From an uncultured virus (IMG/VR IMGVR_UViG_3300016471_000568) (lineage: Duplodnaviria; Heunggongvirae; Uroviricota; Caudoviricetes), in IMG/VR virus record IMGVR_UViG_3300016471_000568: a stretch of DNA of 36,994 nucleotides. One strand, given 5' to 3'. The position numbers and the translations under genes are program-made. How positions within the stretch are numbered: position 1 is the first letter of the stretch; each line of letters opens with the position of its first letter. Below the pieces are notes generated by a model. It was not told the DNA's origin. It worked only from the letters and a program-made list of their open reading frames with translations, and made no database searches. Shown piece after piece: positions 13,771-36,615 of this stretch.

Positions 13771-13786
13771 GAAAAATAAAGAGCAT

Positions 13787-14938
13787 ATGAAAAACAAAGT
13801 AATTGGAGTACCAGCCATAGTAAATGGCAAACAAGTTATTGTAGATTCAAGTGGCAATGATGTTAGTTCATTGTTTCGCTCAATCATGATTAAACATGCA
13901 CACGATAACAATGAAGCGTTAGTGTTTGATGAAGAAACGGGTCGATCTAAACGCATAAGTATATCAGACGTAGAATTAGAATTTGCACCAAGTAACCTAG
14001 AACCAGAAATGCCACAAACACCAACAGAAGCCGATCCGGTAATGCATCTAATCCAAAATGCACATAAAATTAAACCCGCAACGTTAGAAATGTCTGACAT
14101 CAAATGGAAGTATTTGGTACGGTCAGCAGTGCGTGGTAAAAACATCATGATGGTTGGTCCTGCAGGTTGTGGTAAGACACAAGCCGCAAAAGATCTTCCA
14201 GTAGCAACCAATCGTCCATTCTTTTATTTTAATTTGGGTGCAACTCAAGATCCACGCGCAACGCTTATTGGTAATACACATTTCAAAGATGGTCAGACAT
14301 CATTTGATGAATCTGCGTTTGTCAAGGCAATTCAAACAGAGAATGCCGTTGTATTGCTAGATGAGTTGTCCAGAGCTCACCCTGAAGCATGGAACATCTT
14401 AATGACAGTATTGGATGAGGGTCAAAGGTATCTGCGATTAGATGAAGATATCAATTCTCCTACCATCCGTGTTGCAGCAGGCGTATCATTTATTGCAACA
14501 GCAAACATTGGTACCGAATATACATCTACAAGAGTATTGGACCGAGCATTGATGGATCGATTTGAAATTATTGAGGTTGATATTCTTTCTTTGTCCCAAG
14601 AAGAAGATTTATTGACCAAACGATTCCCGACAGTATCCAAGGCATTGATTCATTCAGTAGCTGATATTGCAGATGCAACCCGCAAAGAATGGAGGTCAGA
14701 AGAAGGTAAATTGACTACCATGATATCCACTCGTATGACGGTGCGCGTATGTGAATTGTTGGCAGATGGGTTTTCTTTGTCAGAGGCAGCCGAAGTTGCA
14801 ATTCTTCCATTCTTTGATGCATCAGGTGGTACGGATTCTGAAAGAACCTTTGTTAAGCAAATCATTCAGAAACATATGGCAACTGAAATGAAAGACATTT
14901 TCAATACAGGAAATGATATAAAAGACTCGGTATTTTAA
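13787..14938 (+). CDS. MoxR/CbbQ-NorQ-like AAA+ ATPase
   Basis: Walker A GPAGCGKT, Walker B VLLDELSRA, ATANIG and LDRALMDRF. Confidence 0.9.
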   Translation: MKNKVIGVPAIVNGKQVIVDSSGNDVSSLFRSIMIKHAHDNNEALVFDEETGRSKRISISDVELEFAPSNLEPEMPQTPTEADPVMHLIQNAHKIKPATLEMSDIKWKYLVRSAVRGKNIMMVGPAGCGKTQAAKDLPVATNRPFFYFNLGATQDPRATLIGNTHFKDGQTSFDESAFVKAIQTENAVVLLDELSRAHPEAWNILMTVLDEGQRYLRLDEDINSPTIRVAAGVSFIATANIGTEYTSTRVLDRALMDRFEIIEVDILSLSQEEDLLTKRFPTVSKALIHSVADIADATRKEWRSEEGKLTTMISTRMTVRVCELLADGFSLSEAAEVAILPFFDASGGTDSERTFVKQIIQKHMATEMKDIFNTGNDIKDSVF

Positions 14939-14956
14939 TTTTTCATAGCTCGAAAG

Positions 14957-14982
14957 AGGCGGCAGAAATGTCGCCTTTTTTT
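14957..14982 (+). terminator. Rho-independent terminator
   Basis: AGGCGGCA-GAAA-TGTCGCCT followed by a T tract. Confidence 0.85.
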
Positions 14983-15038
14983 ACATTAATGGTTGGAAAC
15001 TGAATATTAATTTCATATTATATATAAAAATAAAGAGC

Positions 15039-17087: not shown

Positions 17088-17103
17088 ATCAATATAATAA
17101 CAT

Positions 17104-17343
17104 ATGAATTTATTAAAATCATTATATCGACATGGCGATGCAATGTACATTGTGATACAAAAAAAATCAATATCTCGGTTTGCAAAAAAAATAGGCGATG
17201 AACCTGATATGGACTATGTTAAATTGTACATGGAATGGATACAAGCAGACCACGTATTGCGATCGGATACGCATTTTTTATTTTGCGAAACCGTGCAAGA
17301 AACCGAATATGAAATGATTGATGAAACAAATAATATAAAATAA
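17104..17343 (+). CDS. Hypothetical protein
   Basis: ORF filling the gap between the vWA gene and thyA. Confidence 0.7.
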   Translation: MNLLKSLYRHGDAMYIVIQKKSISRFAKKIGDEPDMDYVKLYMEWIQADHVLRSDTHFLFCETVQETEYEMIDETNNIK

Positions 17344-17344
17344 T

Positions 17345-18472
17345 ATGGAACGAGATTACTTAAGACTGCTGCATGATGTTTTGCATAACGGCCAACCAAA
17401 GGATACTAGAAACGGAAAGACACGTTCAGTATTCGGAAGACAAATACGTCACAAGATGTCCGAGGGGTTTCCTTTACTCACAACCAAGAAGATGCCATTC
17501 CGCGTAATAGCAACCGAACTAATGTGGTTTCTTCGAGGTGATACAAACATCGAGTTCCTTGTTGATAATGATTGTCATATCTGGACTGGAGACGCTTACA
17601 AAAATTATTCAGAGAAGGTTGAATCCTGGGAACCTCATTTGAATAAGGAAATGTTTATCGATAGAATAAAAACGGATGTTATATTTGCTAAGAAGTGGGG
17701 TGAACTAGGCCCGATCTATGGTAAGCAATGGAGAAAGTGGCATACAGGTTGGGATGTAGTTGAAGATAAGAGTAAAGAGGCAGGCGTAAGAAGGATTGAG
17801 TACGGAATAGACCAAATCGCAAACCTAATCAATGACCTTAAAACAAATCCTGACTCAAGACGATTGATGGTTAATGCTTGGAATGTTGGAGAATTGGATT
17901 CAATGGTGCTTCCACCTTGTCATTATGGATTTCAAGTTTATACAAGAGAGTTGAGTTTGGAAGAGAAATGGGAACAATATGCTAAATCAGGTTTAAATAT
18001 AGAAATAAATGGAACACCATTAGAGTTAAAACATATGGGAACTCCATTCTATCCTAAGTCATTACCACAACGAGCAATCTCTTTAATGTGGAATCAACGT
18101 TCAGTAGACACATTTTTAGGTTTACCATTCAACATTGCTTCTTACGGCTTGTTATTAGAAATTATTGCAAAGGCAGTGAATATGGTTCCTGATGAATTGA
18201 TTGGTAACTTAGGTGATGTACATTTATATGAAAATCATATAGAACAGGCTCGTGAACAATTACGAAGAGAATTAATGCCATTACCAAAATTAAACATCAA
18301 TACAGAATGGTGGCCAACAGAAAGTGGTGAATGTGGTGAAGGTCCTTTAGATGCTGTAGCAGTGTTTAATGGGTTTACCAATGACAGCTTTTGTAAGTGT
18401 TTGTTGGAAGAAGATTTGCAATTGTATGACTACGATCCACACCCAACAATTAAAGCACCTTTATCAAATTAG
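17345..18472 (+). CDS. thyA: Thymidylate synthase
   Basis: GFPLLTTKK, LGPIYGKQWR, PDSRR, LPPCH, QRSVDTFLGLPFNIASY and DVHLYENH. Confidence 0.97.
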   Translation: MERDYLRLLHDVLHNGQPKDTRNGKTRSVFGRQIRHKMSEGFPLLTTKKMPFRVIATELMWFLRGDTNIEFLVDNDCHIWTGDAYKNYSEKVESWEPHLNKEMFIDRIKTDVIFAKKWGELGPIYGKQWRKWHTGWDVVEDKSKEAGVRRIEYGIDQIANLINDLKTNPDSRRLMVNAWNVGELDSMVLPPCHYGFQVYTRELSLEEKWEQYAKSGLNIEINGTPLELKHMGTPFYPKSLPQRAISLMWNQRSVDTFLGLPFNIASYGLLLEIIAKAVNMVPDELIGNLGDVHLYENHIEQAREQLRRELMPLPKLNINTEWWPTESGECGEGPLDAVAVFNGFTNDSFCKCLLEEDLQLYDYDPHPTIKAPLSN

Positions 18473-18474
18473 TT

Positions 18475-18723
18475 ATGAAAAAATATCTTATTATAGGACT
18501 TGCTGCATTCGTTTTAGAAACAGCATCTACCATGTATATTGCAACAGTAGCAGATCGTAGCCTTGCAATGATATTTTGGGCATTCATTGGACCGTTTTTA
18601 GGATTACCATTTGTGGGATACATGGTTGATTCTCAAACATGGCCAGATCGATTCAAAATGGCATTTGCTTCTAGTATAGGATATGTATTGGGTGCAATAA
18701 CAGTTTATGCAGGAAACATATGA
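18475..18723 (+). CDS. Small membrane protein
   Basis: Three hydrophobic segments. Confidence 0.7.
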   Translation: MKKYLIIGLAAFVLETASTMYIATVADRSLAMIFWAFIGPFLGLPFVGYMVDSQTWPDRFKMAFASSIGYVLGAITVYAGNI

Positions 18724-19420: not shown

Positions 19421-19591
19421 ATGGAAATTGTTTGCATTGATTTAAGACGAAACAAGTATGAATTGCGTAATGCATATGGTGAAGTTGTAACCACAGGTAC
19501 GCAAGATGAATGTTTAATAGCATTATGCGATTTAACTTATTATGAAGAACAAATGGCGTATCAACAACATTTGCGTTTAGGAGAATTTTAA
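19421..19591 (+). CDS. Hypothetical protein (56 aa)
   Basis: MEIVCIDLRRNKYELRNAYG...; directly after the promoter motif at 19379. Confidence 0.6.
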   Translation: MEIVCIDLRRNKYELRNAYGEVVTTGTQDECLIALCDLTYYEEQMAYQQHLRLGEF

Positions 19592-19597
19592 TGTTAT

Positions 19598-19669
19598 GGT
19601 CGGTTCATCTAGGGGTTAGGATACAAGATTTTCATTCTTGTCACACGGGTTCGAATCCCGTACCGACTA
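19598..19669 (+). tRNA. tRNA-Glu(UUC), CCA not encoded
   Basis: Acceptor GGTCGGT/ACCGACT, anticodon arm CAAGA-TTTTCAT-TCTTG, T arm ACGGG-TTCGAAT-CCCGT. Confidence 0.95.
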
Positions 19670-19751
19670 CGAACATGAGTAACCACCAACCCACTGGTAT
19701 TAGGCAGTTCTCAAGATGGAATGCAACAGAACATAGGACCTGCTCGAGTTC

Positions 19752-19777
19752 ACCCTGGTTTCGTGCCAGGGTTTTTT
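19752..19777 (+). terminator. Rho-independent terminator
   Basis: ACCCTGG...CCAGGGT followed by a T tract. Confidence 0.8.
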
Positions 19778-19806
19778 ACTGTACATATTTATATTAAAGG
19801 CTAGTT

Positions 19807-22245
19807 ATGAAACACGTTTACACTATTATCATGCTGTTGATTGGCATCATTGCTTATACTCAATATTGCCCAGCATTGGGACCAGACCAAATTCTTCCAT
19901 GCGGTGTTACTACCGCAACACTAACAGCAGACCTATCTCAATGTGCTCCGGGTAGTGGACCATATGGAACATCTGCTTACACAGTAACACAAATTCCTTA
20001 CGTACCGCAAGCCAACACGGGCGCATTGGTTGCATTGGGAGATGATGTTCAATCGGGTACATTTAACATTGGATTTACATTTTGTTTTTATGGATCAATA
20101 TACAATCAATTTCGAATCGGATCGAATGGTTGGATATCACTAGGTGCAGGCGTACAACCCGCAACATTTACATCACTAGCAATACCATCGGTTAATGCAG
20201 CTGTGCCAAAAAATTGCATCATGGCGCCATGGCAGGATTGGCATCCTGGAATCGGTGGTCAGGTGCGATACCAGGTTCAAGGTGTTGCTCCATGTAGGCG
20301 GTTGGTTGTAAGTTGGATTGGTGTACCAATGTACTCTTGTGTTAACTTGCAAGGTACATTTCATATTGTTATTTACGAAGCAACAAATGTAATTGAAACA
20401 TATATTGCTAATAAACCAAATTGTCCGCAATGGGCTGGTGGTACCGCTGTACACGGCATACATAATTTAACGGGCACTCAAGCAGTAACGGTTGCAGGTA
20501 GAAATTCACAACAATGGACTGCCGTTAATGATGCACGCAGATGGACTCCTGCAGGACCTCCGATCCCGCCATCACTTGTTTGGTATCAAGTAGGAAATCC
20601 AGTACCTATAGCTCAAGGAGTCAATCAAATAACCGTAACACCTCCTGCCGGCGGAGCATATTATACTTGTCATTTAGAATATGGTGCCTGCAATGCGGGT
20701 TGGTCTACGTGCAATGCAGGAGTTGGTTTAGGGCCAGACACCGTACAAGTTGTTCCAGGACCTCCAGTATTGAATCCACCTAACGTTGCAATCACTGATC
20801 CATTGTGCAACGCTTCATGTGACGGTACTGTAGTTGTTACACCGACCAACGGTACAGCTCCATACACATACAACTGGACTACGGGGCAAAACACAAACAC
20901 ACTATCAAACCTATGTGCCGGCACGTATAATGTGTTGATAACAGATGTCAACGGATGTACAGTAAATGCTTCGGCTACGCTAAACGATCCACCACTGCTG
21001 CAAGATCCGTTGATGACGTTTACTAATCCAGTGTGCGTTGGTGATTGTAACGGGACGGCAACGGCAACACCAACGGATGGAGTAGCTCCATACACGTATG
21101 CATGGAGTAATGCACAAATTACTCAAACAGCTACAATGCTATGTCAAGGTACGTATGCTGTAGTGGTGACTGATGCCAACGGCTGTACTGCTTCTAACAG
21201 TGTTACATTAACCGATCCGCCACCAGTTGTCACCGGTCCTATCACAGCATTTGATACTGTTTGTCTAGGCGAAACAGCGGCCATATATTTAGTGCCACCA
21301 CAGCCAGGTTACACATATACATGGACTTCATTGGGCAATATCACATCAGGTCAAGGTACAAATACCATTACGATTGATTGGAGTGCATTAAACGCAGGAT
21401 TAGTAAGCGGTGCTGTTCAAGTTGTTGCCACAAACCAAGTCGGATGCGTTAGTGCGCCGGTTAGTTTCGATGTATACGTATTAAATATCATACCAACTAT
21501 AGATGCTGTTGGTCCATTCTGTGTGTATGACGCAGATGTGACACTTACAGCTAATCCTGTAGGTGGAACATTTTCTGGATTAGGTGTGACGGGCAACCAA
21601 TTTGACCCAACTCAGGCAGTGGGCACAAATAATATATCATACACATATACGCAGAGTGGATGCGCGTTTACTTCATTTAGCACAATAACAGTGTATCCGC
21701 AACCCGTAATAACAAGCATTACTCCTGATGACGAGTTTATACAAATTTGCGAGGGAGATTCAGTTGCATCAACATACACTGCACAAGTGAATCTTGCTGG
21801 TACAACCGAGTGGACATTGCTAGGTAATACAACGCAATCCCCAACGCTTACTGCATCGTGGAGCTCGGCTGGAATTTATATTATACAAGCAACGCATACT
21901 GTGGATGGCTGTGTATCGCAGCCTGCAACAACAACAGTTACCGTATCTCGTTGTCCGCAATTACTATACTATGTACCAAATACATTTACACCCGATGGCA
22001 ATGAACACAATCAAACATGGCAACCTGTGTTTACTTCAGGCTTTGATCCTACAGAATTTCATTGCACGATATTCAATCGATGGGGTGAGATTATTTGGGA
22101 ATCGTATTGGCCTTATGTAGGTTGGGATGGAACGTATAATGCATTACCATGTGCAGACGGTGTATATACATACAAAATTTGGTTTGGTGATAAAAATACT
22201 GATGCAAAATATACCGTATCTGGCCACATTACATTGCTTCGTTGA
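19807..22245 (+). CDS. T9SS type-B CTD (gliding-motility-associated C-terminal domain) protein with SprB-like repeats
   Basis: Signal peptide; repeats P.C...CDG....GTAPYTY.W..G......LCAGTY.V..TD.NGC; C-terminal VPNTFTPDGNEHN..IFNRWGE..WDGTY..DGVY.Y. Confidence 0.9.
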   Translation: MKHVYTIIMLLIGIIAYTQYCPALGPDQILPCGVTTATLTADLSQCAPGSGPYGTSAYTVTQIPYVPQANTGALVALGDDVQSGTFNIGFTFCFYGSIYNQFRIGSNGWISLGAGVQPATFTSLAIPSVNAAVPKNCIMAPWQDWHPGIGGQVRYQVQGVAPCRRLVVSWIGVPMYSCVNLQGTFHIVIYEATNVIETYIANKPNCPQWAGGTAVHGIHNLTGTQAVTVAGRNSQQWTAVNDARRWTPAGPPIPPSLVWYQVGNPVPIAQGVNQITVTPPAGGAYYTCHLEYGACNAGWSTCNAGVGLGPDTVQVVPGPPVLNPPNVAITDPLCNASCDGTVVVTPTNGTAPYTYNWTTGQNTNTLSNLCAGTYNVLITDVNGCTVNASATLNDPPLLQDPLMTFTNPVCVGDCNGTATATPTDGVAPYTYAWSNAQITQTATMLCQGTYAVVVTDANGCTASNSVTLTDPPPVVTGPITAFDTVCLGETAAIYLVPPQPGYTYTWTSLGNITSGQGTNTITIDWSALNAGLVSGAVQVVATNQVGCVSAPVSFDVYVLNIIPTIDAVGPFCVYDADVTLTANPVGGTFSGLGVTGNQFDPTQAVGTNNISYTYTQSGCAFTSFSTITVYPQPVITSITPDDEFIQICEGDSVASTYTAQVNLAGTTEWTLLGNTTQSPTLTASWSSAGIYIIQATHTVDGCVSQPATTTVTVSRCPQLLYYVPNTFTPDGNEHNQTWQPVFTSGFDPTEFHCTIFNRWGEIIWESYWPYVGWDGTYNALPCADGVYTYKIWFGDKNTDAKYTVSGHITLLR

Positions 22246-22335
22246 TATTTATTATTAACTCGACCGGCCCATGGTAGATGGGGGTTTCTAAAAAGATTCT
22301 TCAAGTGAGTATCGTTTAATTTTAAAGGATACCAT

Positions 22336-24285
22336 ATGAAGAATTTTTTACTATCTGTTTTTATTTTTATTTCAAGTTTCGTTCTTTCACAATCCTGCAC
22401 ACACACGTTGCATATGACCGACACATGGGGTGATGGTTGGAATGGTAATCGTGCTTCAGTATCAGTCAATGGAATTACGGTTGTTTCCAACGTTACCTTA
22501 GGTGGTGGTTATGGACCCGCAACCGTAACATTCACAGCAGCTGCTGGGGCTACAATTCGTGTTTGGCGTTCCATTACTGGCTCCTATTCATACGAATGTC
22601 AGATTCGAGTAACTAGTAGTACGGGTGCTACAGTAATTGCATTACAAACACTACAAACCGGTGGATCATCATTTGGTGGTTCTATTGGTACAGCACAATG
22701 CAGTGGTGGTGGTGGAGGTGGCGGAGGTACACTAATTCCCTATAACGGTTCCAATAGTGTTGCTTGTGGAACAAACACAACGCTTTATGATCATGGAGGT
22801 CAGTTTGGAAGCTACTCTAACTATGCCAATGGATTCACAGTTTTGAATAATGCCGGTGGTGCCGTAATCTCAGTCAGTGGATCTACCTCAGGTGAGTCTT
22901 GTTGTGACTGGGTGCGAATCTACTCCGGAAGCGGAACGGGTGGTACAATACTTGGCACCTGGCAAATGGGTTCATTTGTTTCTTATACATCAGCACCGGG
23001 ACAAACTGTTACTGTGCAGTTTTATTCAGATGTTTCAATTACGGGTTCAGGTATTGCTTTGAATGTAACATACACGGGCAGTTGCGTACCTCCTCCACCT
23101 CCAACTAATCCTACATCAGTATCAGCCAGCTTTATGTCAGTGTGTAGTGGTTTCTCAACAACACTCACTGCAAACGGAGCAATAGGTACTGTGTACTGGT
23201 ATGCAGGTGGTTGTGGTTCTACTTACATTGGCACAGGAAATTCCATCTCTGTTGCTCCGACATCAACAACTACATACTATGCAAGAAACTATAACAACAA
23301 TCAATTCAGTGCAGGATGTGCAGCTGCAACAATCACCGTTAATCCGATGCCCTCTGTTAGTATTGCTCCGAGCATTAACCCAATATGCGCAGGATCATCT
23401 ACTCAACTTGTTAGCACGGTGACCGGATTGCCTGCAGGAGCTCCTATTACATACACATGGTCACCTAATGTTAATCTAACAAATACATCAGCACCTAGTC
23501 CGTGGGCATCACCCAATGCCACACAAAGCTATACACTCACCATTTCATCAAATGGATGCAATGCATCAACTAACACCAGTGTTACTGTCAATCCTAGTGT
23601 CCCAGCAGTAAGCAGTGTGACAGGAAACAACAATATCATTGCAGGTACCTCTGAGACATACTCGATTACACCGATAGCAGGAGTTACTTATGCTTGGTCA
23701 TACACACAAACAATGTCTGCTCCGTTGTGGACGAATATACCAAATTCCAATTCGCCAACCATAACATTCACATGGCCACAAACAACCACTAATGGTGCTG
23801 TGCGAGTTACAGTTTCAAATGCTGCCGGATGCAATACACAAACACAGCAATTTCTAATCATAACAATGGGCGCACTACCAATTGAATTGTTGTACTTTTC
23901 TGGTAAAAAAGTAGCTGCAGATAATTTAATATATTGGGCAACTGCTACTGAACACAATACAACTCACTTTGTAGTGGAAAAAAGCGAGAATGGAGTAACA
24001 TGGTTTGAACTAGCAACAGTTGCAGCCGCAGGCAATTCAACTCAAGAACTTCATTATGATGTTACAGATGCCGCAGTTAAACCTACGTACAATTATTACA
24101 GACTGACTCAGTATGACGTCGACGGAGCATATGAAGTGTTTGATCCTATAGTAATCAACAATAAATCAAGTATTCGAATAGTATCTCGGCGCACTAATTT
24201 GTTAGGACAGGATATTGATGAATTGGCAACGGGCATTGTTATCGAAATATATGAAAATGGTGAAGTCGTAAAAACAATCAAATAA
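22336..24285 (+). CDS. Secreted Bacteroidota-type surface protein with CUB-like and Ig-like domains and a short type-A-like CTD
   Basis: Signal peptide; DTWGDGWNG; LYDHGG..ESCCDWVRIY..FYSD.S..GSG; LPIELLYF..WATATEHN..YYRLTQYDVDG; terminal NLLGQ..G......ENG...K. Confidence 0.8.
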   Translation: MKNFLLSVFIFISSFVLSQSCTHTLHMTDTWGDGWNGNRASVSVNGITVVSNVTLGGGYGPATVTFTAAAGATIRVWRSITGSYSYECQIRVTSSTGATVIALQTLQTGGSSFGGSIGTAQCSGGGGGGGGTLIPYNGSNSVACGTNTTLYDHGGQFGSYSNYANGFTVLNNAGGAVISVSGSTSGESCCDWVRIYSGSGTGGTILGTWQMGSFVSYTSAPGQTVTVQFYSDVSITGSGIALNVTYTGSCVPPPPPTNPTSVSASFMSVCSGFSTTLTANGAIGTVYWYAGGCGSTYIGTGNSISVAPTSTTTYYARNYNNNQFSAGCAAATITVNPMPSVSIAPSINPICAGSSTQLVSTVTGLPAGAPITYTWSPNVNLTNTSAPSPWASPNATQSYTLTISSNGCNASTNTSVTVNPSVPAVSSVTGNNNIIAGTSETYSITPIAGVTYAWSYTQTMSAPLWTNIPNSNSPTITFTWPQTTTNGAVRVTVSNAAGCNTQTQQFLIITMGALPIELLYFSGKKVAADNLIYWATATEHNTTHFVVEKSENGVTWFELATVAAAGNSTQELHYDVTDAAVKPTYNYYRLTQYDVDGAYEVFDPIVINNKSSIRIVSRRTNLLGQDIDELATGIVIEIYENGEVVKTIK

Positions 24286-27423: not shown

Positions 27424-27434
27424 TAATTAAAAAA

Positions 27435-29380: not shown

Positions 29381-29980
29381 TATTTTTAGATGAATCACGT
29401 AATAGTTCTAGACGCATTGGGAGAATGAATGTGTGTTTTAGTGTCTAGTAGCATCCAGATAGATAGATTAGATATCTCCCTGCCGGTCCTACTTGTTTTC
29501 GCGGGGCATAGCATCTTTATTCCGGGTCAATGGATATCTAGACACCAAAAAGGCTGCAATGTTCTTAAACGAACTGTAAGAGCCGGGATACGGGGACACC
29601 TATTTTTAGATGAAGTGGCACCATCACCCCGAGTTATTTTTAGTCCGAGTGGCGTCTATTTTTAGATCGGGATGCCCTTATCTCCCCAGCGTATTTTTAG
29701 TCCGAGTGGAGTCTATTTTTAGATCATGATGCGCTCTATATATACAAGATCGAATACCAGCGTATTTTTAGTCCAATAACGTATTTTTAGAATGCATAAT
29801 GCGTGTCGTTACGTATAGTGATCTGAACAGTTTATTTTTAGAGCAATATCCGCTCCCTCCCAGCTATTTTTAGATCAACGTGCACGTATTTTTAGAGCAA
29901 AGGCCGGCGTATTTTTAGTCCGAGTGGTTTGATTTTTAGTCCGGGGGCTGCCTATTTTTAGACCAAAACCAGGTTTTAGA
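29381..29980 (+). repeat. Non-coding array of TATTTTTAG direct repeats
   Basis: Exact copies at 29381, 29601, 29635, 29657, 29692, 29714, 29763, 29782, 29833, 29865, 29887, 29910 and 29953; variants near 29931 and 29972. Confidence 0.9.
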
Positions 29981-30083
29981 CCCGGTTTCATTTGGTTTGC
30001 TAGCTATACAGCGTAAACTTTTTTTAACATGTGGTTGGATCTTTGCCGTTGATTTCATATTATATAAGTGTAAATAAGATGAT

Positions 30084-30167
30084 ATGATAACATTGATTAT
30101 AACGCTTGTGACGATGGCGGTGGCATTTGCCATTATGTATGCGGCGGATCGTAATTACGATGAATAG
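30084..30167 (+). CDS. 27-aa hydrophobic peptide
   Basis: MITLIITLVTMAVAFAIMYAADRNYDE, downstream of the promoter motif at 30035. Confidence 0.5.
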   Translation: MITLIITLVTMAVAFAIMYAADRNYDE

Positions 30168-30363
30168 ATTGGCGACGGGGTCCGGGATGCAAGTGCTCGT
30201 AACAGACACTCCCGGCGGATCGCAGTGATAGGATCATGATGTGATGATGTGAATAACATTGTAATGAGTTGATCCTATCCGGCATTGGGTATCATGACCG
30301 ACGGGTTTCTCTCTCTTATTCCCAGGCGTGTACCACGGGCGGCAGCAATGTCGCCCTTTTTTT
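30168..30363 (+). ncRNA. Putative structured RNA or long 3' UTR
   Basis: CCGGGA/TCCCGG stem, 10-bp GATAGGATCA/TGATCCTATC stem, CT-rich tract, then a terminator. Confidence 0.5.
30337..30363 (+). terminator. Rho-independent terminator
   Basis: GGGCGGCA-GCAA-TGTCGCCC plus T7; nearly identical to the terminator at 14957. Confidence 0.85.
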
Positions 30364-30467
30364 GTGTAATAATTTAATATTAATCTAAATTTAATCATTT
30401 CTTAATCTAAAATGCTTGGATCGCATTATTATTTTACTTATCTTTATATAAATTAAAAAGAGAGAAT

Positions 30468-30623
30468 ATGACAAATGTAGAGAAAAAAAGATTAGCAAAA
30501 ATTAGAAAAGAGTTTGCAGAATTAAAAGGTGCTGGATGCATTCCGGTTTTAATGCCATATGAGGAATATTTAGCAACATTTCCGGATCCGATAAAAACAA
30601 AAAAAGTTGCTAAAAAAGGGTAA
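30468..30623 (+). CDS. Hypothetical protein (51 aa)
   Basis: Follows a repeated promoter and AAGAGAG leader. Confidence 0.6.
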   Translation: MTNVEKKRLAKIRKEFAELKGAGCIPVLMPYEEYLATFPDPIKTKKVAKKG

Positions 30624-30673
30624 CCCTTTTGAAAAATTTGGTTATAATATAAAATAAATTAAAAAGAGAGAAT

Positions 30674-31078
30674 ATGACAAAAACAGCAAATTTAGCAGAT
30701 CAATTAAATGCACAAGCCAACGGCTTAATTATCGATTCGCAAGGCCAGAACGATGCATGTTATAACTTTTACGATTGGTTCTGCAAGGATTCCAGTTTAC
30801 GTAACAAGTCCTGGAAATTGATGAAGCAGGTAAAGACATTCTTAAAGCATAATCCGCAAATTGATTTATTGGAGCATTATGTATTTTTTAAGAACAATTG
30901 TCCGATGCGAGGTCCATTGTATGATGATTTTAGAATATGCAATATTGAGACGGGCAATGTAGTGTTTACAGTTATTCCCAAGTGTGGGCATAGTGGGTTA
31001 GCTGAAATTTGGGGACGTGAAAATGACTTTAAAGGTCCTATTAAGACAGCCAAAACTTTTAGCAAACTTTTTTCCTAA
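30674..31078 (+). CDS. Hypothetical phage protein
   Basis: YDWFCKDSSL..YVFFKNNCP...LYDDFRI pattern; AAGAGAG leader. Confidence 0.75.
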   Translation: MTKTANLADQLNAQANGLIIDSQGQNDACYNFYDWFCKDSSLRNKSWKLMKQVKTFLKHNPQIDLLEHYVFFKNNCPMRGPLYDDFRICNIETGNVVFTVIPKCGHSGLAEIWGRENDFKGPIKTAKTFSKLFS

Positions 31079-31138
31079 AATGCTTGGATCGCATTGATAT
31101 TTTTATTAAATTTATAGTATAATTAAAAAGAGAGAAAT

Positions 31139-31360
31139 ATGACAGTAGAAAAATTTGAAATGTTAGTTGAGAGTATTGGAATTAATAATAATACATTCAG
31201 TGGCCCAACCGGAGAACGCGATGGAGAGTGTTGTTTGTATTTGTATGAAATGGATGATTTAAAGAATTTAGCAAAACGATTTGATTTTAGATTTAAAATT
31301 ACGGAAGAGTTTATAGATGGCAATGGCGATGATTGTATAGTTGTAGAATTAGCAGTTTAA
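31139..31360 (+). CDS. Hypothetical acidic protein
   Basis: Follows a repeated promoter. Confidence 0.65.
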   Translation: MTVEKFEMLVESIGINNNTFSGPTGERDGECCLYLYEMDDLKNLAKRFDFRFKITEEFIDGNGDDCIVVELAV

Positions 31361-31442
31361 AAAAGTTGGAAAAAAGTTTGCGGATCCTTAGGTTCGCATT
31401 CTTTTTTTCCTTATCTTTAAGTATAATTAAAAAGAGAGATAA

Positions 31443-31607
31443 ATGGAAAAAATTAACATCAGCGACTTTATTGCCTGGATGGAGGAAAATGCAAATCATC
31501 CGATGCATGAATTGGCAATTAAAACCTTTAAAAAGATAAGACGCAATAAAGGTGAAATTAAAATTGAATGGAAGCATTTTGCAAAAGTTAACGGATTTGT
31601 AGTATAA
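31443..31607 (+). CDS. Hypothetical protein (54 aa)
   Basis: MEKINISDFIAWMEEN...; follows a repeated promoter. Confidence 0.6.
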   Translation: MEKINISDFIAWMEENANHPMHELAIKTFKKIRRNKGEIKIEWKHFAKVNGFVV

Positions 31608-31626
31608 ATTAAAAAATAAGAGAGTT

Positions 31627-31872
31627 ATGAAATTAGTTAGAAAAACAAGAGAGGCAGTAATTACCGAAACGTTTGAAATTGAATTAACAGCCGGCAATCG
31701 AGTATTTGTAAAAGATTATCTGGATGAAAGTGGTAAAGTAATTGACACAGAGTTCAGAGATGAAGATGGCAGAGACTTAAGTGACGATCCAGTCCTGTTT
31801 GAAGCAATAATTGAATTCTTAGAAGAATTAGAGCATGGATTTGATATTGTAGATCATGATGTACATGAATAA
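31627..31872 (+). CDS. Hypothetical acidic protein
   Basis: AATAAGAGAG leader. Confidence 0.65.
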   Translation: MKLVRKTREAVITETFEIELTAGNRVFVKDYLDESGKVIDTEFRDEDGRDLSDDPVLFEAIIEFLEELEHGFDIVDHDVHE

Positions 31873-31966
31873 AATTGTGAATAACTTTTCTGAAAAAAAG
31901 TTTCAGAAAAATTAGGATCGCATTGATTTTTTCCTTATCTTTAAGTATAATTAAAAACAAAGAGAT

Positions 31967-32152
31967 ATGGCAGTAGGCAAAAAGAATTCAGGATTTTTCA
32001 AGCAAGACGCAGTAGCAGCCCGCATGTTGGCAGATGCAAAACGTCCACAACAATTAAATGCAGCAGTAGTGCAAGCAATGAAACAAGCAGAGCGCAACCG
32101 CTTGTACCGAGAAGCTCAATTAGCAAAACAAAAGCCCCGTTTTATTAGATAA
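31967..32152 (+). CDS. Hypothetical basic protein
   Basis: Follows a repeated promoter. Confidence 0.65.
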   Translation: MAVGKKNSGFFKQDAVAARMLADAKRPQQLNAAVVQAMKQAERNRLYREAQLAKQKPRFIR

Positions 32153-32228
32153 AAGGTTAATCTAAATTTAATCTAAAAAGGGTAACCCTTTGCAGTTTTT
32201 TCGGTTTAATATAAAAAGAGAATAAGTT

Positions 32229-32966
32229 ATGAAAAGAAGAATTGTAGTTAGTAATGGTGCAATAGTAGGTGCCGAATCCACAAAGCGTTACGTTGCAGAA
32301 ATTAAAAAGGCTCGTCCCATTAGCAAAGAAGATGAAGCGGTTCTGATACAAAAGGCACAACAAGGTGATGTTGCAAGTCGCAATGTGATGATAGAAAGCA
32401 ATCTGCGGTTTGCGGTGCAAGTGGCTCGACAATATCAAGGCATGGGCTTAGAAATGGAGGACCTTATAGCATTTGCAAACGTCGGGTTGTTTGAGGCTGT
32501 GGATCGTTTTGACACCAGCAAGAATGTTAAATTCATTACGTTTGCGGTTTGGTATATCCGTGCCGAGTTGCAGAAGGCGCTCAATGATTTGTCCCGCACA
32601 GTTAGGATTCCATCACACCGAGTGTCTACCGAGGAGTACTCCACAAAGAGCATATCCACTCCGGTAGGTGAAGATGAGAACAAGGAAACATATGCGGATC
32701 GATACTTGCAAGCCGATGAGGTACGTAGCTCCAGGGACCTAGCAGATATGCGCTTTGACATTGATAGAGTGTTAGCCCAATTGAAGCCCAAGCAAGAAGA
32801 GGCATTGCGACGCAATTATGGCATTGGCTTTGAGTATGCACAGTGCATGGAGCAGATTGGCGAAGAGATGGGAGTTACAAATGAGCGTGCACGGCAATTG
32901 GTTCGTCAGGCCGAGGAGGCATTGTGCAAGCTACCAGGTGTTAAATTGCTTGAGCAATACCTTTAA
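32229..32966 (+). CDS. RNA polymerase sigma-70 family factor
   Basis: SNLRFAVQVARQYQ..DLIAFANVGLFEAVDRFD..KFITFAVWYIR (region 2); EQIGEEMGVTNERARQL (region 4 HTH). Confidence 0.92.
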   Translation: MKRRIVVSNGAIVGAESTKRYVAEIKKARPISKEDEAVLIQKAQQGDVASRNVMIESNLRFAVQVARQYQGMGLEMEDLIAFANVGLFEAVDRFDTSKNVKFITFAVWYIRAELQKALNDLSRTVRIPSHRVSTEEYSTKSISTPVGEDENKETYADRYLQADEVRSSRDLADMRFDIDRVLAQLKPKQEEALRRNYGIGFEYAQCMEQIGEEMGVTNERARQLVRQAEEALCKLPGVKLLEQYL

Positions 32967-33040
32967 AGGTTAATCTAAATTTAATCTGAAAAAGGGTAAC
33001 CCTTTGTGCAAAAAACGGTTTAATATAAAAAAGAGAGAAT

Positions 33041-33139
33041 ATGTCAAAAGTTGTGAAATTTGTTTTAGAGTTTATCATTGCAATGGGTATTGCATTATCA
33101 GCGGCATTCATCATTAAATTTGCTGCAGAAACTTTTTAA
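33041..33139 (+). CDS. 32-aa hydrophobic peptide
   Basis: AAGAGAG leader after a GGGTAACCC unit. Confidence 0.5.
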   Translation: MSKVVKFVLEFIIAMGIALSAAFIIKFAAETF

Positions 33140-33212
33140 AAAAAAAGTTTGCGAAATGCTTGGATCGCATTGATATTTTCTTTATCTTTAAGTATAATTA
33201 AAATTAATCATT

Positions 33213-33353
33213 ATGTATTACGGAAATTGTCAAACTATTAAAGAATATTTTTTCAGTGTAGTCTTAGGAATTATCTGCATTGCAATATCTTTAAGATTGT
33301 TAAGCTTAGCTTACAAGACCTATCAAATCGATCAAAGGAACAAGAAAGCGTAA
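33213..33353 (+). CDS. 46-aa TM peptide
   Basis: Follows a repeated promoter. Confidence 0.5.
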   Translation: MYYGNCQTIKEYFFSVVLGIICIAISLRLLSLAYKTYQIDQRNKKA

Positions 33354-33448
33354 TTCAATTGTGAATAACTTTACGTAAAAAAGTTGCAAAAAGATTAGGA
33401 TCGCATTGATATTTTCCTTATCTTTAAGTATAATAAAAAATAAGAGAT

Positions 33449-33700
33449 ATGAAAAAGTTCCCAGTTTACATCGCCCACAACCAATTCGGTTGGTCTAATC
33501 CATCTGCAATTAGTACTAGCGCTAATGAAGTTGTCTTTGATATGAATAAGATATCCGATGAACTTAAGGCAAAGGTATTTGGCCAAATTGGTATTGTAGA
33601 ATTAACCCGGGCCGAGATGATTGAGATATCAGATGCTCGAATCACTGTACGTAGAGTAGGTGCTAAAATGATGGCTAACTTAGGAATTAACAATAATTAA
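33449..33700 (+). CDS. Hypothetical protein
   Basis: Follows a repeated promoter. Confidence 0.65.
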   Translation: MKKFPVYIAHNQFGWSNPSAISTSANEVVFDMNKISDELKAKVFGQIGIVELTRAEMIEISDARITVRRVGAKMMANLGINNN

Positions 33701-33714
33701 AAAATAAGAGATAT

Positions 33715-33987
33715 ATGAACAAAATGCAAGAACAGTTAGCCGAGGACTTAATCCGGAACGTAGCAGCAGCATCTGATTCTGCCAGGGCCTTAATGCTTTT
33801 AACGGGTGATCCGGATTTTCAATTATTGGCAGCAATGCTTGAAATGATGGTGGTGGCCAAAGCCAAAGGTGACATAGAAGACTTTGCTCGTGCATGCACC
33901 GATGTTGCAGCTCAAAAGAATGCTGCCACAGCCGGGGGAAGTGCAATCGATTCAATCATTGTTAACTTTAACGGAATAGCCAATTAA
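33715..33987 (+). CDS. Hypothetical protein
   Basis: AATAAGAGAT leader. Confidence 0.65.
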   Translation: MNKMQEQLAEDLIRNVAAASDSARALMLLTGDPDFQLLAAMLEMMVVAKAKGDIEDFARACTDVAAQKNAATAGGSAIDSIIVNFNGIAN

Positions 33988-34085
33988 TCTAAGGTTAATC
34001 TAAATTTAATCATTTCTTAATCTAAAATGGTTGGATCGCATTGAAAAAGTCCTTATATTTATAGTATAATTAAAAAGAGAGAAAA

Positions 34086-34241
34086 ATGAAAAGAACAAAA
34101 AAAATCAGCGCAGAAAAAGTAGAAAGTGGAATTGTTAATGCATTCGGATTTGCATTGTTAGGAATCGTTGTATATGCAATTGCATTTATTGTTTACAAAT
34201 TGGCAACGGGCACGGCTGGTGTCGTAAGCATTGGAGTATGA
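34086..34241 (+). CDS. 51-aa TM peptide
   Basis: Follows a repeated promoter. Confidence 0.55.
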   Translation: MKRTKKISAEKVESGIVNAFGFALLGIVVYAIAFIVYKLATGTAGVVSIGV

Positions 34242-34317
34242 TAGGGGACATAATATATGCGAGCTTGTTGCTCAACCTGGTGCTAATCATGAAATTAATC
34301 AGTAAATCTAAAAAACA

Positions 34318-34467
34318 ATGACAATGACAAAAGAAGAAGTAAAAGAGCAGATCCAAATCGACCTATGCACTTACCTGGAATGTATTGGTTTTCAGGACAA
34401 TGGAGAATATGCTGAAATCTGCCAGATAGTGATAGACAACTTTAAGAAGCTTGACGAAGAAGGTTAA
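34318..34467 (+). CDS. Hypothetical protein (49 aa)
   Basis: MTMTKEEVKEQIQIDLCTYL..CQIVIDNFKKL; A-rich leader. Confidence 0.55.
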   Translation: MTMTKEEVKEQIQIDLCTYLECIGFQDNGEYAEICQIVIDNFKKLDEEG

Positions 34468-34578
34468 TCTAAATTTAATCATTTCTTAATCTAAAAGATT
34501 TGGATCGCATTGATATTTTCCTTATCTTTATGTATAGGAAATAAGGGAATAGTCCCACATAATTAAAAAAAAGAGAGT

Positions 34579-34965
34579 ATGAAAAAAGCAGAATTAGTAG
34601 CACAATTGGAGGTAGCAAAGGCGCTAACCTCAGTAGTATCAATCGACAGTGTAATTGCACTTATCCAGGAGTTGGAGGCGGAGCAAGTAGCCAAAACGGA
34701 ATCGCGTATAACCGCCAAATTGTTTACCCAGGTTGTAGACGTTATTGAATCGTCACTTAACAATATGCGCCATTCGGAGGCTGTCGATTTAAGCTCCGCG
34801 GAATTTGAATTGGATTGGAATAATTGCATTAACTTAACGGATGTATCCCTCGACACGGATTACATATACAATGAGATACGCGAGCAATTGGAAACTGCAA
34901 TTGACATTGTAGATGAGGAAGAAGCCAACGAGGCACAAATTGAAGCAGAGCAAACCGAGTCGTAA
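34579..34965 (+). CDS. Hypothetical acidic protein
   Basis: AAGAGAG leader; AEFELDWNN pattern. Confidence 0.7.
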   Translation: MKKAELVAQLEVAKALTSVVSIDSVIALIQELEAEQVAKTESRITAKLFTQVVDVIESSLNNMRHSEAVDLSSAEFELDWNNCINLTDVSLDTDYIYNEIREQLETAIDIVDEEEANEAQIEAEQTES

Positions 34966-35031
34966 TAAGATATATCTCTCAGTCCCCGGGCCAGCAGCGA
35001 TGTTGGCCCTTGTGGACGTAAAAAAGAGAGC

Positions 35032-35217
35032 ATGAAAAAATTAGCACGTTACAAAAACAATCTTCGCATAGACGGAGACCGAGTTATTTCTTACACCACC
35101 CACGTAGCAACCATTGATGGACCCTTTCTTCGGGTACATGGCAGGTGGAGCAAAACAACCACCAAGCATTGCAATTATGTAGCAACAGAATTGAAGCTTA
35201 AGCAAATAATGTCTTAA
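35032..35217 (+). CDS. Hypothetical phage protein (ISY.T.VA..WS.TT.KH type)
   Basis: Recognisable small-phage-protein pattern; AAGAGAG leader. Confidence 0.7.
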   Translation: MKKLARYKNNLRIDGDRVISYTTHVATIDGPFLRVHGRWSKTTTKHCNYVATELKLKQIMS

Positions 35218-35300
35218 TCTAAATTTAATCATTTCTTAATCTAAAATGCTAGGATCGCATTGAAAAATTCCTTATCTTTAAGTATAATTAAAAAGAGAGC

Positions 35301-35456
35301 ATGAAAAAAGAATTGAAAGAATTAGAAGCAAAGCTTAAGGCATTAAGAGAAGCCATGGAACGCTATGATGTATTCCAGCAAGATGATGAAATAGGCCTGG
35401 CATTAGCTGAGGTAGAAGCAGAATTAGCTAATTCAGACTCCGATAAAAAAGTTTAA
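35301..35456 (+). CDS. 51-aa coiled-coil peptide
   Basis: Follows a repeated promoter. Confidence 0.55.
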   Translation: MKKELKELEAKLKALREAMERYDVFQQDDEIGLALAEVEAELANSDSDKKV

Positions 35457-35529
35457 AAAAAGTTACCAAAAAGGTTGGATCGCATTGATTTTTTCCTTAT
35501 CTTTAAGTATAAATTAAAAAGAGAGATAT

Positions 35530-36480
35530 ATGATGAGTAATGTTTTTGAACCCGTTAGAATTAAAGGCAAGCTATTTGCTAAGAACACAACCACAGGCGT
35601 CATAGCGCCTAAAGACACCATCCGACACATCCAGCTGCTAAATGCTGAGAAGAACCGGGAAGTATTGATAGTATCCGCAACGGGCCGCGTTACCCGAGTA
35701 CCGGCAGTAGACGTAGGAGTTGCATTGACACCACAGCCAGCCGCCAAGTTATCCTTTATGCAAGCAAAGCAAACACAGGATCCGGAGGAGATGTTTAAGA
35801 ACATTGAACGACTCACCAAAATGGTAGGGCGTGGCATACAGCCGTCACTTGTTGTTACGGGAGGCGCAGGCACCGGCAAGACGCATTTGGTTAAAGAGAC
35901 ATTGACGTCCATGGGCCTCAAAGAATCCACAGACTTTGTGCACTTCAAGGGTCGTGCTACCGCTGCCGGCTTGTATATCACATTGTATGAGAATAGCTCC
36001 AAAGTCATTGTGTTGGATGATTGCGATAGCGTGTTTAAGGATGATGATGCAGTGAATATCCTCAAAGCGGCTTTGGATAGCTATGACACCCGCAAGATAT
36101 CTTATATCAGCACCAAGAGCCTCAAAGACGAATTTGGCAATGAGGTCCCGCGCCATTTTGAATTTACAGGTCGCATCATCTTTATCTCTAACATTGATCA
36201 ATCACGTTTGGATGAAGCAATTCGTTCACGTAGCTTTGTAAGTGATGTTGCCCTGACAACGGACCAAATGTTTACCCGCATGGGTCAATTGATGACGTCC
36301 ATGGAGCGAAGCATCCCGATGACGGCTAAGGAGCAGGCATTGCAGTTGATGCAGGAATTGGATGCAGAGTATGACGGCGTAGAGATCAACCTGCGCAGCT
36401 TTATCAAAGCAGCACGCATATGTGCAATGGGCTTTGAAAATCCCAAAATGATGATAGCAGAACAAATCATCCCGGCATAA
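35530..36480 (+). CDS. P-loop (AAA-like) ATPase
   Basis: Walker A GGAGTGKT, Walker B VIVLDDCD, NILKAALDS, IIFISN and AIRSRS. Confidence 0.85.
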   Translation: MMSNVFEPVRIKGKLFAKNTTTGVIAPKDTIRHIQLLNAEKNREVLIVSATGRVTRVPAVDVGVALTPQPAAKLSFMQAKQTQDPEEMFKNIERLTKMVGRGIQPSLVVTGGAGTGKTHLVKETLTSMGLKESTDFVHFKGRATAAGLYITLYENSSKVIVLDDCDSVFKDDDAVNILKAALDSYDTRKISYISTKSLKDEFGNEVPRHFEFTGRIIFISNIDQSRLDEAIRSRSFVSDVALTTDQMFTRMGQLMTSMERSIPMTAKEQALQLMQELDAEYDGVEINLRSFIKAARICAMGFENPKMMIAEQIIPA

Positions 36481-36615
36481 GATATATCTCTCGGCGGATC
36501 CGGCACTAGAAATGGTGTCGGATTTCTGCTGAAAAAAAGTTTAAAAAAAGTTACCAAAAGATTAGGATCCTATCGATTTATTCCTTATCTTTATATAAAT
36601 TAAAAAGAGAGAGAT

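Follow-up and report, generated by a model that had tools for sequence, protein, structure and literature searches.

In a 36,994-nt stretch of DNA from an uncultured virus of the Caudoviricetes (IMG/VR record IMGVR_UViG_3300016471_000568; the whole stretch is referred to as the window), two genes were found to carry, directly behind their stop codons, a short sequence complementary to their own start region. The genes encode a MoxR/AAA_5-type ATPase (MoxR below) and an AAA-type ATPase (the ATPase below), and the sequences behind them are termed elements (a) and (b); two further elements, (c) and (d), match a leader shared by many small genes of the window (Table 1). The complementarity is conserved, covaries, is specific to the gene strand and dominates the predicted folds, and both genes have kept their end-to-end pairing by compensatory mutation across ~100 environmental relatives. 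We consider it probable that the elements are RNA-level anti-start sequences that mask start sites and are gated by translation. Finished messages could then, as their predicted folds suggest, fold shut over the start codon, which would give a DNA phage a means, seldom documented, of limiting or coupling protein synthesis.

An initial annotation had flagged the four sequences as parts of a recurring self-silencing system, each followed by a GNRA hairpin. All four were found where it had placed them (14939-14951, 36481-36492, 34966 and 30306-30320), all are conserved in related contigs, and a hairpin with G-U pairs lies 3' of each, with the loops GAAA, GCAA, GCGA and GAAA in order along the window. 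Its central proposal, that a complement behind the stop can occlude the gene's own start, fits MoxR and the ATPase, in which the pairing is conserved, compensatory and dominant in the predicted folds.

Element (a), TTTTTCATAGCTC, is complementary to GAGC(A)TATGAAAAA over 4+9 bp with one bulged A. Its conservation was followed in the best 80 of 248 related stretches (69-98% protein identity), 79 of which were usable for the post-stop motif. The motif TT(T/C)CATA(G/A/T)C was found within 60 nt behind the MoxR stop in 66/79 loci, at a distance of 0-8 nt in 62 and of 14-36 nt in 4. The whole MoxR tail measures ~45-60 nt, and the terminator behind the motif has been replaced among the relatives by at least four unrelated hairpin types, with the motif kept.

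Covariation, which the initial annotation had named as a check, was read from an alignment of whole MoxR messages (alignment A1; 80 sequences, 74 distinct) with a fixed 12-pair helix between start region and post-stop motif. In this register 91.8% of 846 cells pair, compared with 30-52% after a shift of the 3' partner by 1-3 columns, and at least 10 of the 12 pairs are retained in 62/80 sequences; the window and its four closest relatives score lower here because of the one-base bulge. Double-sided changes occur at 5/12 pairs (19 cells vs 6.1 +/- 2.2 in shuffles). The covariation score was 0.144 vs 0.106 +/- 0.007 after shuffling and was equalled by 0/500 shuffles, a control that, like all permutation and shuffle controls used here, ignores the kinship of the contigs. 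The compensatory haplotypes comprise GGUUAUG/CAUAACC in the L078 group, to which L087/88 add one more C-G, CAGUU/AGCUG in L104/105, and GAUAUGAAAGA/UCUUUCAUAUC in L107. At position -2, U-A, C-G and frequent U-G were all seen; a U-G pair is acceptable only as RNA of the gene strand. Furthermore, duplexes between the two ends of the same locus were stronger than those across loci (-13.59 vs -12.02), and 0/5000 permutations did as well.

The L078 clade also separates the motif from the promoter. Its promoter core differs and its match of the MoxR motif to the start region is kept, so the motif tracks the start region and not the promoter. On this ground, a promoter-like role of TTTTTCATAGCTC, which has TTTCATA in common with the middle promoter, was rejected.

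As a separate observation at this locus, at least 12 MoxR relatives (L036, L046, L048, L049, L053, L062, L064, L066, L076, L077, L093 and L098) have a longer conserved module instead of a terminator. It stands just behind the MoxR stop, reads ACAGTTACGGC(A/T)AAAATCACC...CGTTAATCAGCG(T/G)GATCTGT inside a GAGAC/GTCTC-type stem, and may be a distinct structured RNA.

At the ATPase gene, GATATATCTCTC at 36481-36492 complements GAGAGATATAT at 35521-35531 over 11 bp. A variant of CATATCTCTC lies 2-8 nt behind the ATPase stop in 25 of 29 related loci (60-91% identity), and this consensus exactly complements GAGAGAUAUG, the early leader seen most often together with its start codon. Despite such likeness between leaders, (b) prefers its own start: among the early-type starts of a locus, the own start ranked at a mean percentile of 0.17 (0 = best; Wilcoxon p 4e-4), with an energy of -13.24 vs -10.46 for the other early starts (Wilcoxon p 3e-5; 17 distinct loci in both tests). 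It outdid the start of the next gene in 12/15 loci, with 2 ties. Own-locus duplexes reached -11.78 vs -10.42 across loci, with 0/5000 permutations as good, and pairs of a tail from one gene family with a start from the other came to just -6 to -7 kcal/mol, either way. The bases 5' of CAT in the motif track the second codon (AUGUU/AACAU in 4/4 loci, AUGAU/AUCAU in several, AUGC/GCAU in L026), and in a clade whose leader is two bases longer (GAUAUAUG) the motif is two bases longer as well. The 15-mer TAAGATATATCTCTC, which contains the element, is present twice in the window (34966 and 36478). If 2 mismatches at most are allowed, 0.04 matches are expected, and two copies arose in 0/100 shuffles.

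In the clade of L007-L010 and L029, early leaders read AAAUUGAGAG in place of AAAAAGAGAG. This lengthens the match to the constant CUCUCAAU flank of the motif to 13 nt, as in the case of a start that precedes the ATPase start by 1364 nt; only one side has changed, and pairing is raised by it.

Full-length folds were computed for assumed messages of ~1.0-1.2 kb, with assumed transcript ends. The helix between start and post-stop motif was present in the minimum free energy (MFE) structure of 7/8 MoxR messages and 9/9 ATPase messages, with 9-14 expected ensemble pairs; in the eighth MoxR message, from L107, the motif lies outside the scoring window used. Ten other window genes were folded as controls: eight had 0 start:post-stop pairs, one had 3, and the gene before (c) had 4.

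What such a helix would do depends on the host. Two large proteins encoded at 19807-24285 contain repeats of the SprB, PKD and Ig-like kinds, and a CHU_C type IX secretion signal is present in the first of them. These features point to a Bacteroidota host, a hint on which we take the host to be a Bacteroidota bacterium. Ribosomes of Bacteroidia are reported to work without Shine-Dalgarno pairing, with initiation tuned by mRNA structure (PMC6847099, PMC7797042), as reported for Flavobacterium johnsoniae (PMC6847099). If the ribosomes of the likely host ignore the Shine-Dalgarno sequence, accessibility of the leader should be the main control of initiation, and a helix of 10-13 bp over leader and AUG should therefore lock the start. 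Mimicry of a Shine-Dalgarno sequence was rejected as the role of the leader, which has no GGAGG and lies too near the AUG.

We propose that pyrimidine-rich stretches of the message pair with the purine-rich initiation region, that is, leader plus AUG. For (a) and (b), with the complement directly behind the stop of what looks like a one-gene message and a leader of ~12-16 nt, the completed transcript would close end to end. The lock could form only once transcription has passed the final 15 nt ahead of the terminator or hairpin; ribosomes would load during transcription and loading would then be curtailed, giving a co-transcriptional pulse of translation. The motif usually stands 0-8 nt behind the stop, inside the stretch covered and unwound by a terminating ribosome, so ongoing translation would reopen the start and a lapse would close it.

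Carried further, stop-adjacent anti-starts would make translation both self-sustaining and self-limiting. A ribosome finishing the MoxR or ATPase frame would reopen the nearby start and favour re-loading in cis, in the manner of a bacterial 'closed loop', and the message ends would shut for good when ribosome traffic lapses. Together with (c) and (d), this would amount to a small RNA-only toolkit with which phages of Bacteroidota blind to Shine-Dalgarno sequences time and dose early and middle proteins. We consider this extension, including the timing function, unlikely as it stands and put it forward as speculation.

Several results weigh against start masking by these elements. First, no genome-wide tendency exists, and the effect is confined to a handful of genes. 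For 59 window genes, the mean duplex energy between own 3' end and own leader was -5.85 vs -6.03 for shuffled pairs (permutation p 0.74), and the longest complementary run averaged 5.14 vs 5.12 (p 0.47). Only the two ATPase genes reached runs of at least 9 (9 and 11, with energies of -14.1 and -15.3), a count equalled by 21% of permutations because the early leaders are alike. In G002, a complete relative of 159.6 kb, own pairs of 192 genes were marginally better than shuffled ones (-4.75 vs -4.53, p 0.055); MoxR had the strongest of the 192 pairs, first in both directions, and the AAA ATPase ranked fourth. Other top pairs of G002 (20578-21114, 78076-78597) were set aside as chance or start/stop overlaps by appearance. 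The recurring system that the initial annotation had suggested is thus not a general property of the genes.

Second, the motifs have exceptions. The MoxR motif is missing in 13/79 loci and motif (b) in 4/29; the 4 MoxR loci with the motif 14-36 nt behind the stop weaken, as far as their sequences indicate, closeness to the stop as an essential feature. The +4/+5 match of (b) fails in L005, L019 and L021/22/27, and in several loci another start pairs with (b) equally well or better, because the early leaders are so alike. Element (c) has no preference among starts (nearest upstream -9.8, next -11.1, other early starts -11.05). Third, promoters, 5' ends and 3' ends are read from motifs, and duplexes of 10-13 bp would have to close a loop of ~1 kb in competition with ribosomes. 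A contig from a metatranscriptome run spans hairpin (b) (36415-36748); if it is RNA, this argues that (b) is not the complete 3' end. That metatranscriptome, the only one to match, shares 6% of sampled words with the window, and as contigs it allows no ends, strand or level to be read, nor is any meaning attached to the stretches of the window that it leaves uncovered. Finally, since the controls ignore relatedness, the p-values are too optimistic and significance is overstated.

Element (c) differs from (a) and (b) in its likely partner. It is conserved as (A/T)CATATCTCTC in 20/29 related loci. Behind the stop come (A/U)CAUAUCUCUC and, a few bases on, an outer GUCC/GGAC helix around an inner GGGYCRGCA-GNRA-UGUYGGCCC hairpin; the next gene then begins immediately with its A-rich leader and AUG. 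Gene-strand TCTCTC/CCTCTC sites in 180 kb of loci, counted by eye, lie inside (b)- or (c)-type elements in 40/46 cases. The initial annotation had taken (c) as an anti-start for the leader of the gene it follows; this could not be upheld, as own-leader preference is lacking and a local fold onto the next start fits better. In one clade the leader of the open reading frame (ORF) just upstream of (c) is in fact mismatched (-3.5), the start of that ORF being uncertain. The next start is only 56-75 nt away, and in the local MFE structure of 13/13 distinct loci (c), at the end of the upstream cistron, sequesters it by 5-10 bp that take in the AUG, the GNRA hairpin forming the inner arm; in the window this region has an MFE of -25.5 kcal/mol (z -3.52 vs shuffles). 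Element (c) is a generic anti-leader, and its predicted folds have the layout of translational coupling by start-site occlusion. Anti-leader, GNRA hairpin and next start would form one local structure between the cistrons, and translation of the 61-aa gene would depend mainly on ribosomes that reach the end of the upstream gene and melt the helix there.

In the RNA phage MS2, coupling works by start-site occlusion and long-distance pairing, with upstream ribosomes opening the helix. Element (c) has exactly this layout. The elements described here differ in being non-coding and in belonging to a DNA phage; moreover, the start occluded by (a) or (b) is that of the very cistron whose own terminating ribosome would open it. 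We know of no description of such self-coupling of start and terminating ribosome on one cistron.

Stop-codon readthrough stimulated by the hairpins was considered for (b) and (c) and rejected: (c) has a tandem TAA TAA, and the frame of (b) closes after 38 codons. Minus-strand mini-genes started from the mirrored leader were rejected as well, with lengths of 3-6 codons only.

The alternative that survives best is that the CU-rich elements are seeds of stable small RNAs derived from 3' ends, which would hit AAGAGAG-AUG early messages in trans, for example shutting off early translation once middle transcription starts, with folding onto the own start being secondary. In a similar form it had been raised in the initial annotation. 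For the elements as a group we hold this to be rather doubtful, though it is compatible with start masking; for (d) alone it is the likelier reading. Both (c) and (d) fit the consensus leader and not any single gene, the target motif stands on ~19 early starts in the window, a very stable hairpin lies immediately 3' of each element, and the (b)-family motif stays near CATATCTCTC even where the own leader deviates (L007-10, L020). For (a), however, no target in trans is plausible: the 3' elements of MoxR pair with early leaders at ~-7 and with their own start at -13.6. The own start is also what (b) favours when the rest of the early starts in its locus are compared. The tight placement behind stops is also left unexplained by a role in trans.

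Element (d) is organised in another way. The sequence TTTCTCTCTCTTATT at 30306-30320 lies 138 nt behind a small ORF, is the invariant loop of a hairpin and matches its own leader over ~7 nt at most, so that the post-stop role given to it in the initial annotation was dropped. The loop UUUCUCUCUCUUAUU complements early leaders of the AAUAAGAGAGAGAAA type and covers both leader variants of the family, AAUAAGAGA and AAGAGAGAGA. In five related records the (d) regions are ~50% identical overall, yet CGGGTTTCTCTCTCTTATT(C/T)CC and the promoter-like element are invariant (alignment A2). A scan of viral contigs with the low-complexity 15-mer gave 78/80 fetched loci that are unrelated, only L151 and L184 belonging to the family, and conservation was therefore counted within related records. 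There the 13-mer core was found in 10/30 records, many of them fragments, always on the gene strand and once each, except twice in G005; a reversed control occurred in 0 of the 30. The stems vary while staying paired (GGAUCCCGGG, GGGGUCCUGGG, GGGACUCGGG, AGCACCCGGG) and the loop is unchanged. In L226-L229 a stem of 10-11 bp with a U run makes the terminator itself display the loop; in the clade of the window a 3-bp stem displays it and a separate terminator with a GCAA loop follows. ORFs of similar length and character were read by eye at this place in G002, G003 and G005.

Element (d) thus combines an unpaired, conserved seed with a covarying stem, a conserved promoter-like element of its own and a terminator, far from any stop codon. 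Judged from these features, it is most likely a displayed anti-leader acting in trans: the invariant 15-nt CU loop, at the 3' end of a small-ORF RNA with a putative promoter of its own, would act on the shared early leaders. RNAs with a seed in a loop, such as P1 c4, target start regions, and (d) resembles them in its invariant single-stranded loop complementary to starts, its covarying stem, promoter and terminator; it differs in that its RNA also carries a small ORF and that in some relatives the seed is the terminator loop.

Two observations were made next to (d). Behind the 27-aa ORF, a conserved block GGGGTCCGGGAT...CCCGGCGGATCG is kept in G002 and G004, inside the long 3' region at whose end the anti-leader loop stands; the unit at 30085-30300 has the look of a small RNA that is structured and encodes a membrane peptide as well. 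Directly before the promoter-like element of unit (d), at 29600-29960, at least 14 copies of a 9-10-nt word similar to (C)GTATTTTTAG(T/A)CC occur at irregular spacings of 20-45 nt; G004 has TTATTTTTAGAT repeats at the matching place. These copies may be an array that binds protein, or they may mark an origin-like region.

Control of message decay by the 5'-3' helices, through protection of the 5' end and start region from nucleases or through a double-strand cleavage site, would draw equally on the structural evidence for start masking, and we judge it improbable. Precedents exist for both forms: a 14-bp pairing of the 5' with the 3' untranslated region (UTR) of hbs modulates cleavage by RNase Y (PMC5737220), and the pairing in icaR makes a substrate for RNase III (PMC3868564). 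The helices described here also start within a few nucleotides of the putative 5' end. They always include, however, the AUG and the first coding bases, which is expected for masking and not required for end protection, and 10-13 bp is short for RNase III.

Very improbable, finally, is that the complements are inverted repeats at the DNA level, from or for recombination that shuffles gene cassettes, with no RNA function: metagenome contigs do join across repeated cassettes, (b) and (c) share an identical 15-mer, and T4-type phages shuffle promoter-stem-loop cassettes, but the MoxR unit lies outside the cassette region and its gene is present in all 80 kept loci, mostly with the motif directly after the stop, its pairing tolerates U-G and not the mirror A-C and covaries by compensation and not by copy identity, the G-U pairs of the hairpins are stable only on the gene strand, and the motifs are strongly conserved while flanking bases drift.

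The hairpins themselves were found to be common companions of the elements and not a required part of them, which modifies the initial annotation: MoxR relatives have unrelated terminators, and one clade has a GAAG loop. A GC-rich hairpin directly followed by a U run, as in an intrinsic terminator, is present at 14952-14982 and 30337-30363; GAAAAAAAG follows 36491-36532, and UAAAAAAGAGAG and the next gene follow 34982-35017. Compared with shuffles, folding was pronounced around (a) (14930-14990, z -4.06), (c) (34960-35045, the z value given above) and (b) (36475-36545, z -5.66); the region around the terminator at 30337-30356 did not fold better than shuffles to a like degree (z -0.78). In relatives, the inner hairpin of (c) has compensatory changes at 4/9 consensus pairs and one invariant G-U pair. 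The hairpin of (b) has them at 4/11, with conserved G-U pairs and a GNRA loop in nearly all, followed by YCUGCUGUAAAAAAA. A hairpin top of GGCA-GNRA-UGUC with a G-U pair is common to (a), (d) and, in many relatives, (c). In kind, the GNRA hairpins are ordinary, either stable hairpins or terminators, those at 14952-14982 and 30337-30363 being plain terminators; the hairpins of (b) and (c), which have no U run, are conserved structured elements that may stabilise the 3' end, mark a site of processing or form the lock's inner arm. A reading as lambda nut-like boxA/boxB, which the CU tract plus GNRA hairpin resembles, was set aside, two of the hairpins being plain terminators. A scan of the whole window with 4227 Rfam models (E up to 1) returned only a tRNA-Glu and one chance miRNA match; hence no Rfam family covers the elements or hairpins.

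The nearest relatives of (a) and (b) are messages whose ends pair with each other. In hok mRNA of plasmid R1 the 3' end pairs with the 5' end (fbi/tac), leaving the full-length message inert, and does so only after transcription is complete. The predicted folds of MoxR (7/8) and ATPase (9/9) messages, with their assumed ends, likewise join the two ends of the full-length message, but here the start codon itself lies in the helix, instead of an upstream activator element. A toxin, an antisense RNA and 3' processing, which go with hok, are not known for (a) and (b), which belong to AAA ATPases. A small hydrophobic ORF exists only in unit (d), where the own-leader match is ~7 nt and no antisense RNA was seen, with no search aimed at one.

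A further relative in function is icaR of Staphylococcus aureus. There, a pyrimidine-rich motif behind the coding region pairs with the message's own landing site, so that pairing of 3' UTR and Shine-Dalgarno sequence blocks initiation, and translation inhibition was proposed (PMC3868564). Elements (a) (13 bp with a bulge) and (b) (11 bp) are complementary to the own landing site in the same way, conserved and specific for their own gene. Here, the partner is a leader free of a Shine-Dalgarno sequence plus the AUG itself, and the motif follows the stop at 0-8 nt, the whole 3' UTR measuring 45-60 nt; the icaR UTR, by the same source, exceeds 100 nt (PMC3868564), a feature that (a) and (b) do not have. 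A further difference is that the elements belong to a dsDNA phage whose host is of Bacteroidota type, with at least 2 genes and conservation over ~100 contigs. In hbs of B. subtilis, a long-range helix of similar length (14 bp) joins the UTRs of a short monocistronic message; there it modulates RNase Y cleavage in the leader and the start codon is uncovered (PMC5737220). A preprint on B. subtilis (Gill et al. 2025) states that anti-RBS (ribosome-binding site) 8-mers hundreds of nucleotides downstream repress expression and are depleted from genes (PMC12697547). Such pyrimidine-rich sequences are scarce in the window as well. CTCTC has 5 copies on the gene strand of the 37 kb, 4 of them at three flagged intergenic sites, and its complement has 29; TCTCTC has 4 copies on the plus strand vs 13 on the minus strand. 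The difference is that accidental anti-RBS sequences are avoided there, whereas specific copies are positively conserved here at defined positions.

Since (a) and (b) share the helix with the own landing site, and neither the long UTR of icaR nor the toxin with antisense RNA of hok was seen, they were grouped as probably working like these systems and not as members of either. As read from their sequences, they would be a new form of icaR- or hok-type 5'-3' pairing. To our knowledge, few bacterial messages have a 3' end that regulates their own 5' end (icaR, hbs, hok), each is a single-gene case, and we know of none with comparable comparative support. A literature search for such elements in phages, or for phage analogues of icaR or hok, found no case; it left subscription journals mostly uncovered, and absence from print is not shown by it. 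The elements yield a searchable sequence rule, a complement of the start right behind the stop codon, that is applicable to other genomes. They also offer a testable link of termination and initiation on one message, and a candidate phage small RNA against a shared early leader. If the proposed roles are true, they would provide compact parts for dosing gene expression in Bacteroidota, where few such tools exist.

Table 1. Positions of the elements, their pairing partners and accompanying features in the window
Feature	Position	Strand	Remarks
Middle-type promoter-like element, MoxR unit	13739..13770	+	TTGGAT, ~11 nt, ATTTCATATTATATA
MoxR start region, 5' partner of helix (a)	13781..13794	+	GAGC(A)TATGAAAAA
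MoxR/AAA_5-type ATPase gene	13787..14938	+	383 aa; Pfam AAA_5 E 1.4e-21, bpMoxR, CbbQ_C
Anti-start element (a)	14939..14951	+	TTTTTCATAGCTC; 0 nt behind TAA stop of 13787-14938
Intrinsic terminator behind (a)	14952..14982	+	13-bp stem with A-tract/U-tract, GAAA loop, U run; -18 kcal/mol
Middle-type promoter-like element, unit (d)	30035..30066	+	invariant columns in five-genome alignment A2
Small ORF of unit (d)	30085..30168	+	27 aa; hydrophobic membrane-type peptide
Element (d)	30303..30323	+	short GGG/CCC stem with 15-nt loop UUUCUCUCUCUUAUU (30306-30320)
Intrinsic terminator of unit (d)	30337..30363	+	8-bp stem, GCAA loop, U7
Early cassette region	30440..36994	+	~19 small genes, most behind a repeated promoter cassette
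Gene ending at (c)	34579..34965	+	128 aa
Element (c)	34966..34980	+	TAAGATATATCTCTC; second in-frame TAA plus anti-leader, directly behind stop
Hairpin of (c)	34982..35017	+	outer GUCC/GGAC, inner GGGCCAGCA-GCGA-UGUUGGCCC, no U run; -22.7 kcal/mol
Start region of next gene	35024..35034	+	GAGAG pairs with CUCUC of (c) in predicted MFE structure
Next gene	35032-35217	+	61 aa; lacks a promoter cassette
ATPase start region, 5' partner of helix (b)	35521..35532	+	GAGAGATATATG
AAA-type ATPase gene	35530..36480	+	316 aa; Pfam AAA E 7.7e-5
Element (b)	36478..36492	+	stop codon plus anti-start GATATATCTCTC
G-U-rich hairpin of (b)	36491..36532	+	18 bp, 2-nt bulge, GAAA loop, then A run; -27 kcal/mol

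The long reading frames of the window are on the plus strand throughout. The ATPase at 35530-36480 also has weak matches to AAA_16 and nSTAND6, both below cut-off, and the other proteins include an amidase, a thymidylate synthase and a sigma-70-family factor. The G+C content is 0.42-0.45 across the repeat proteins at 19807-24285 vs ~0.35 elsewhere. A tRNA-Glu (anticodon TTC) was found by ARAGORN and Rfam at 19598-19670, followed by a terminator-like hairpin at 19752-19772. Two short ORFs, 19421-19591 and 19591-19797, partly overlap it, and the latter is probably not a gene.

At the DNA level, the only likeness to known phages was to Flavobacterium phages and confined to the thymidylate-synthase region, a search of cultured-phage DNA gave no match for the early region, and the best MoxR protein match among cultured relatives is 55% identical, in a Microcystis phage; these searches thus brought up no laboratory phage of the group. 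The relatives in IMG/VR are records of ~160 kb with direct terminal repeats, and DNA of the window is present in freshwater or lake metagenomes from 10 studies.

Two kinds of promoter-like elements were seen. The element TTGGAT-spacer-ATTTCATATTATATA recurs before 13787, 15039, 19421 and 30085, is conserved in relatives and, by its form, is a putative promoter. In the MoxR unit it stops 16 nt short of the ATG, which makes the leader very short. The second kind is a longer repeated cassette with a TATAAT-like end, before the small genes of 30.4-37 kb; the labels 'middle' and 'early' for the two kinds are ours and presumptive. The sigma-70-family factor (regions 2 and 4), encoded at 32229-32966 amid the small genes of the early cassettes, is a candidate for directing the TTGGAT...ATTTCATATTATATA promoters. 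Nearly all early cassette genes have an A-rich/AAGAGAG(A)(U)AUG leader, and the ~19 genes with such starts are candidate targets of the CU-rich elements. Freshwater metagenome contigs join across the repeated cassettes within 34400-36900 (for example 35505 to 36531, with the ATPase gene absent, 35294 to 35455, and 34480 to 36777), and single cassettes are accordingly present or absent between strains. These joins resemble the shuffling of early genes by promoter-stem-loop cassettes in T4-type phages.

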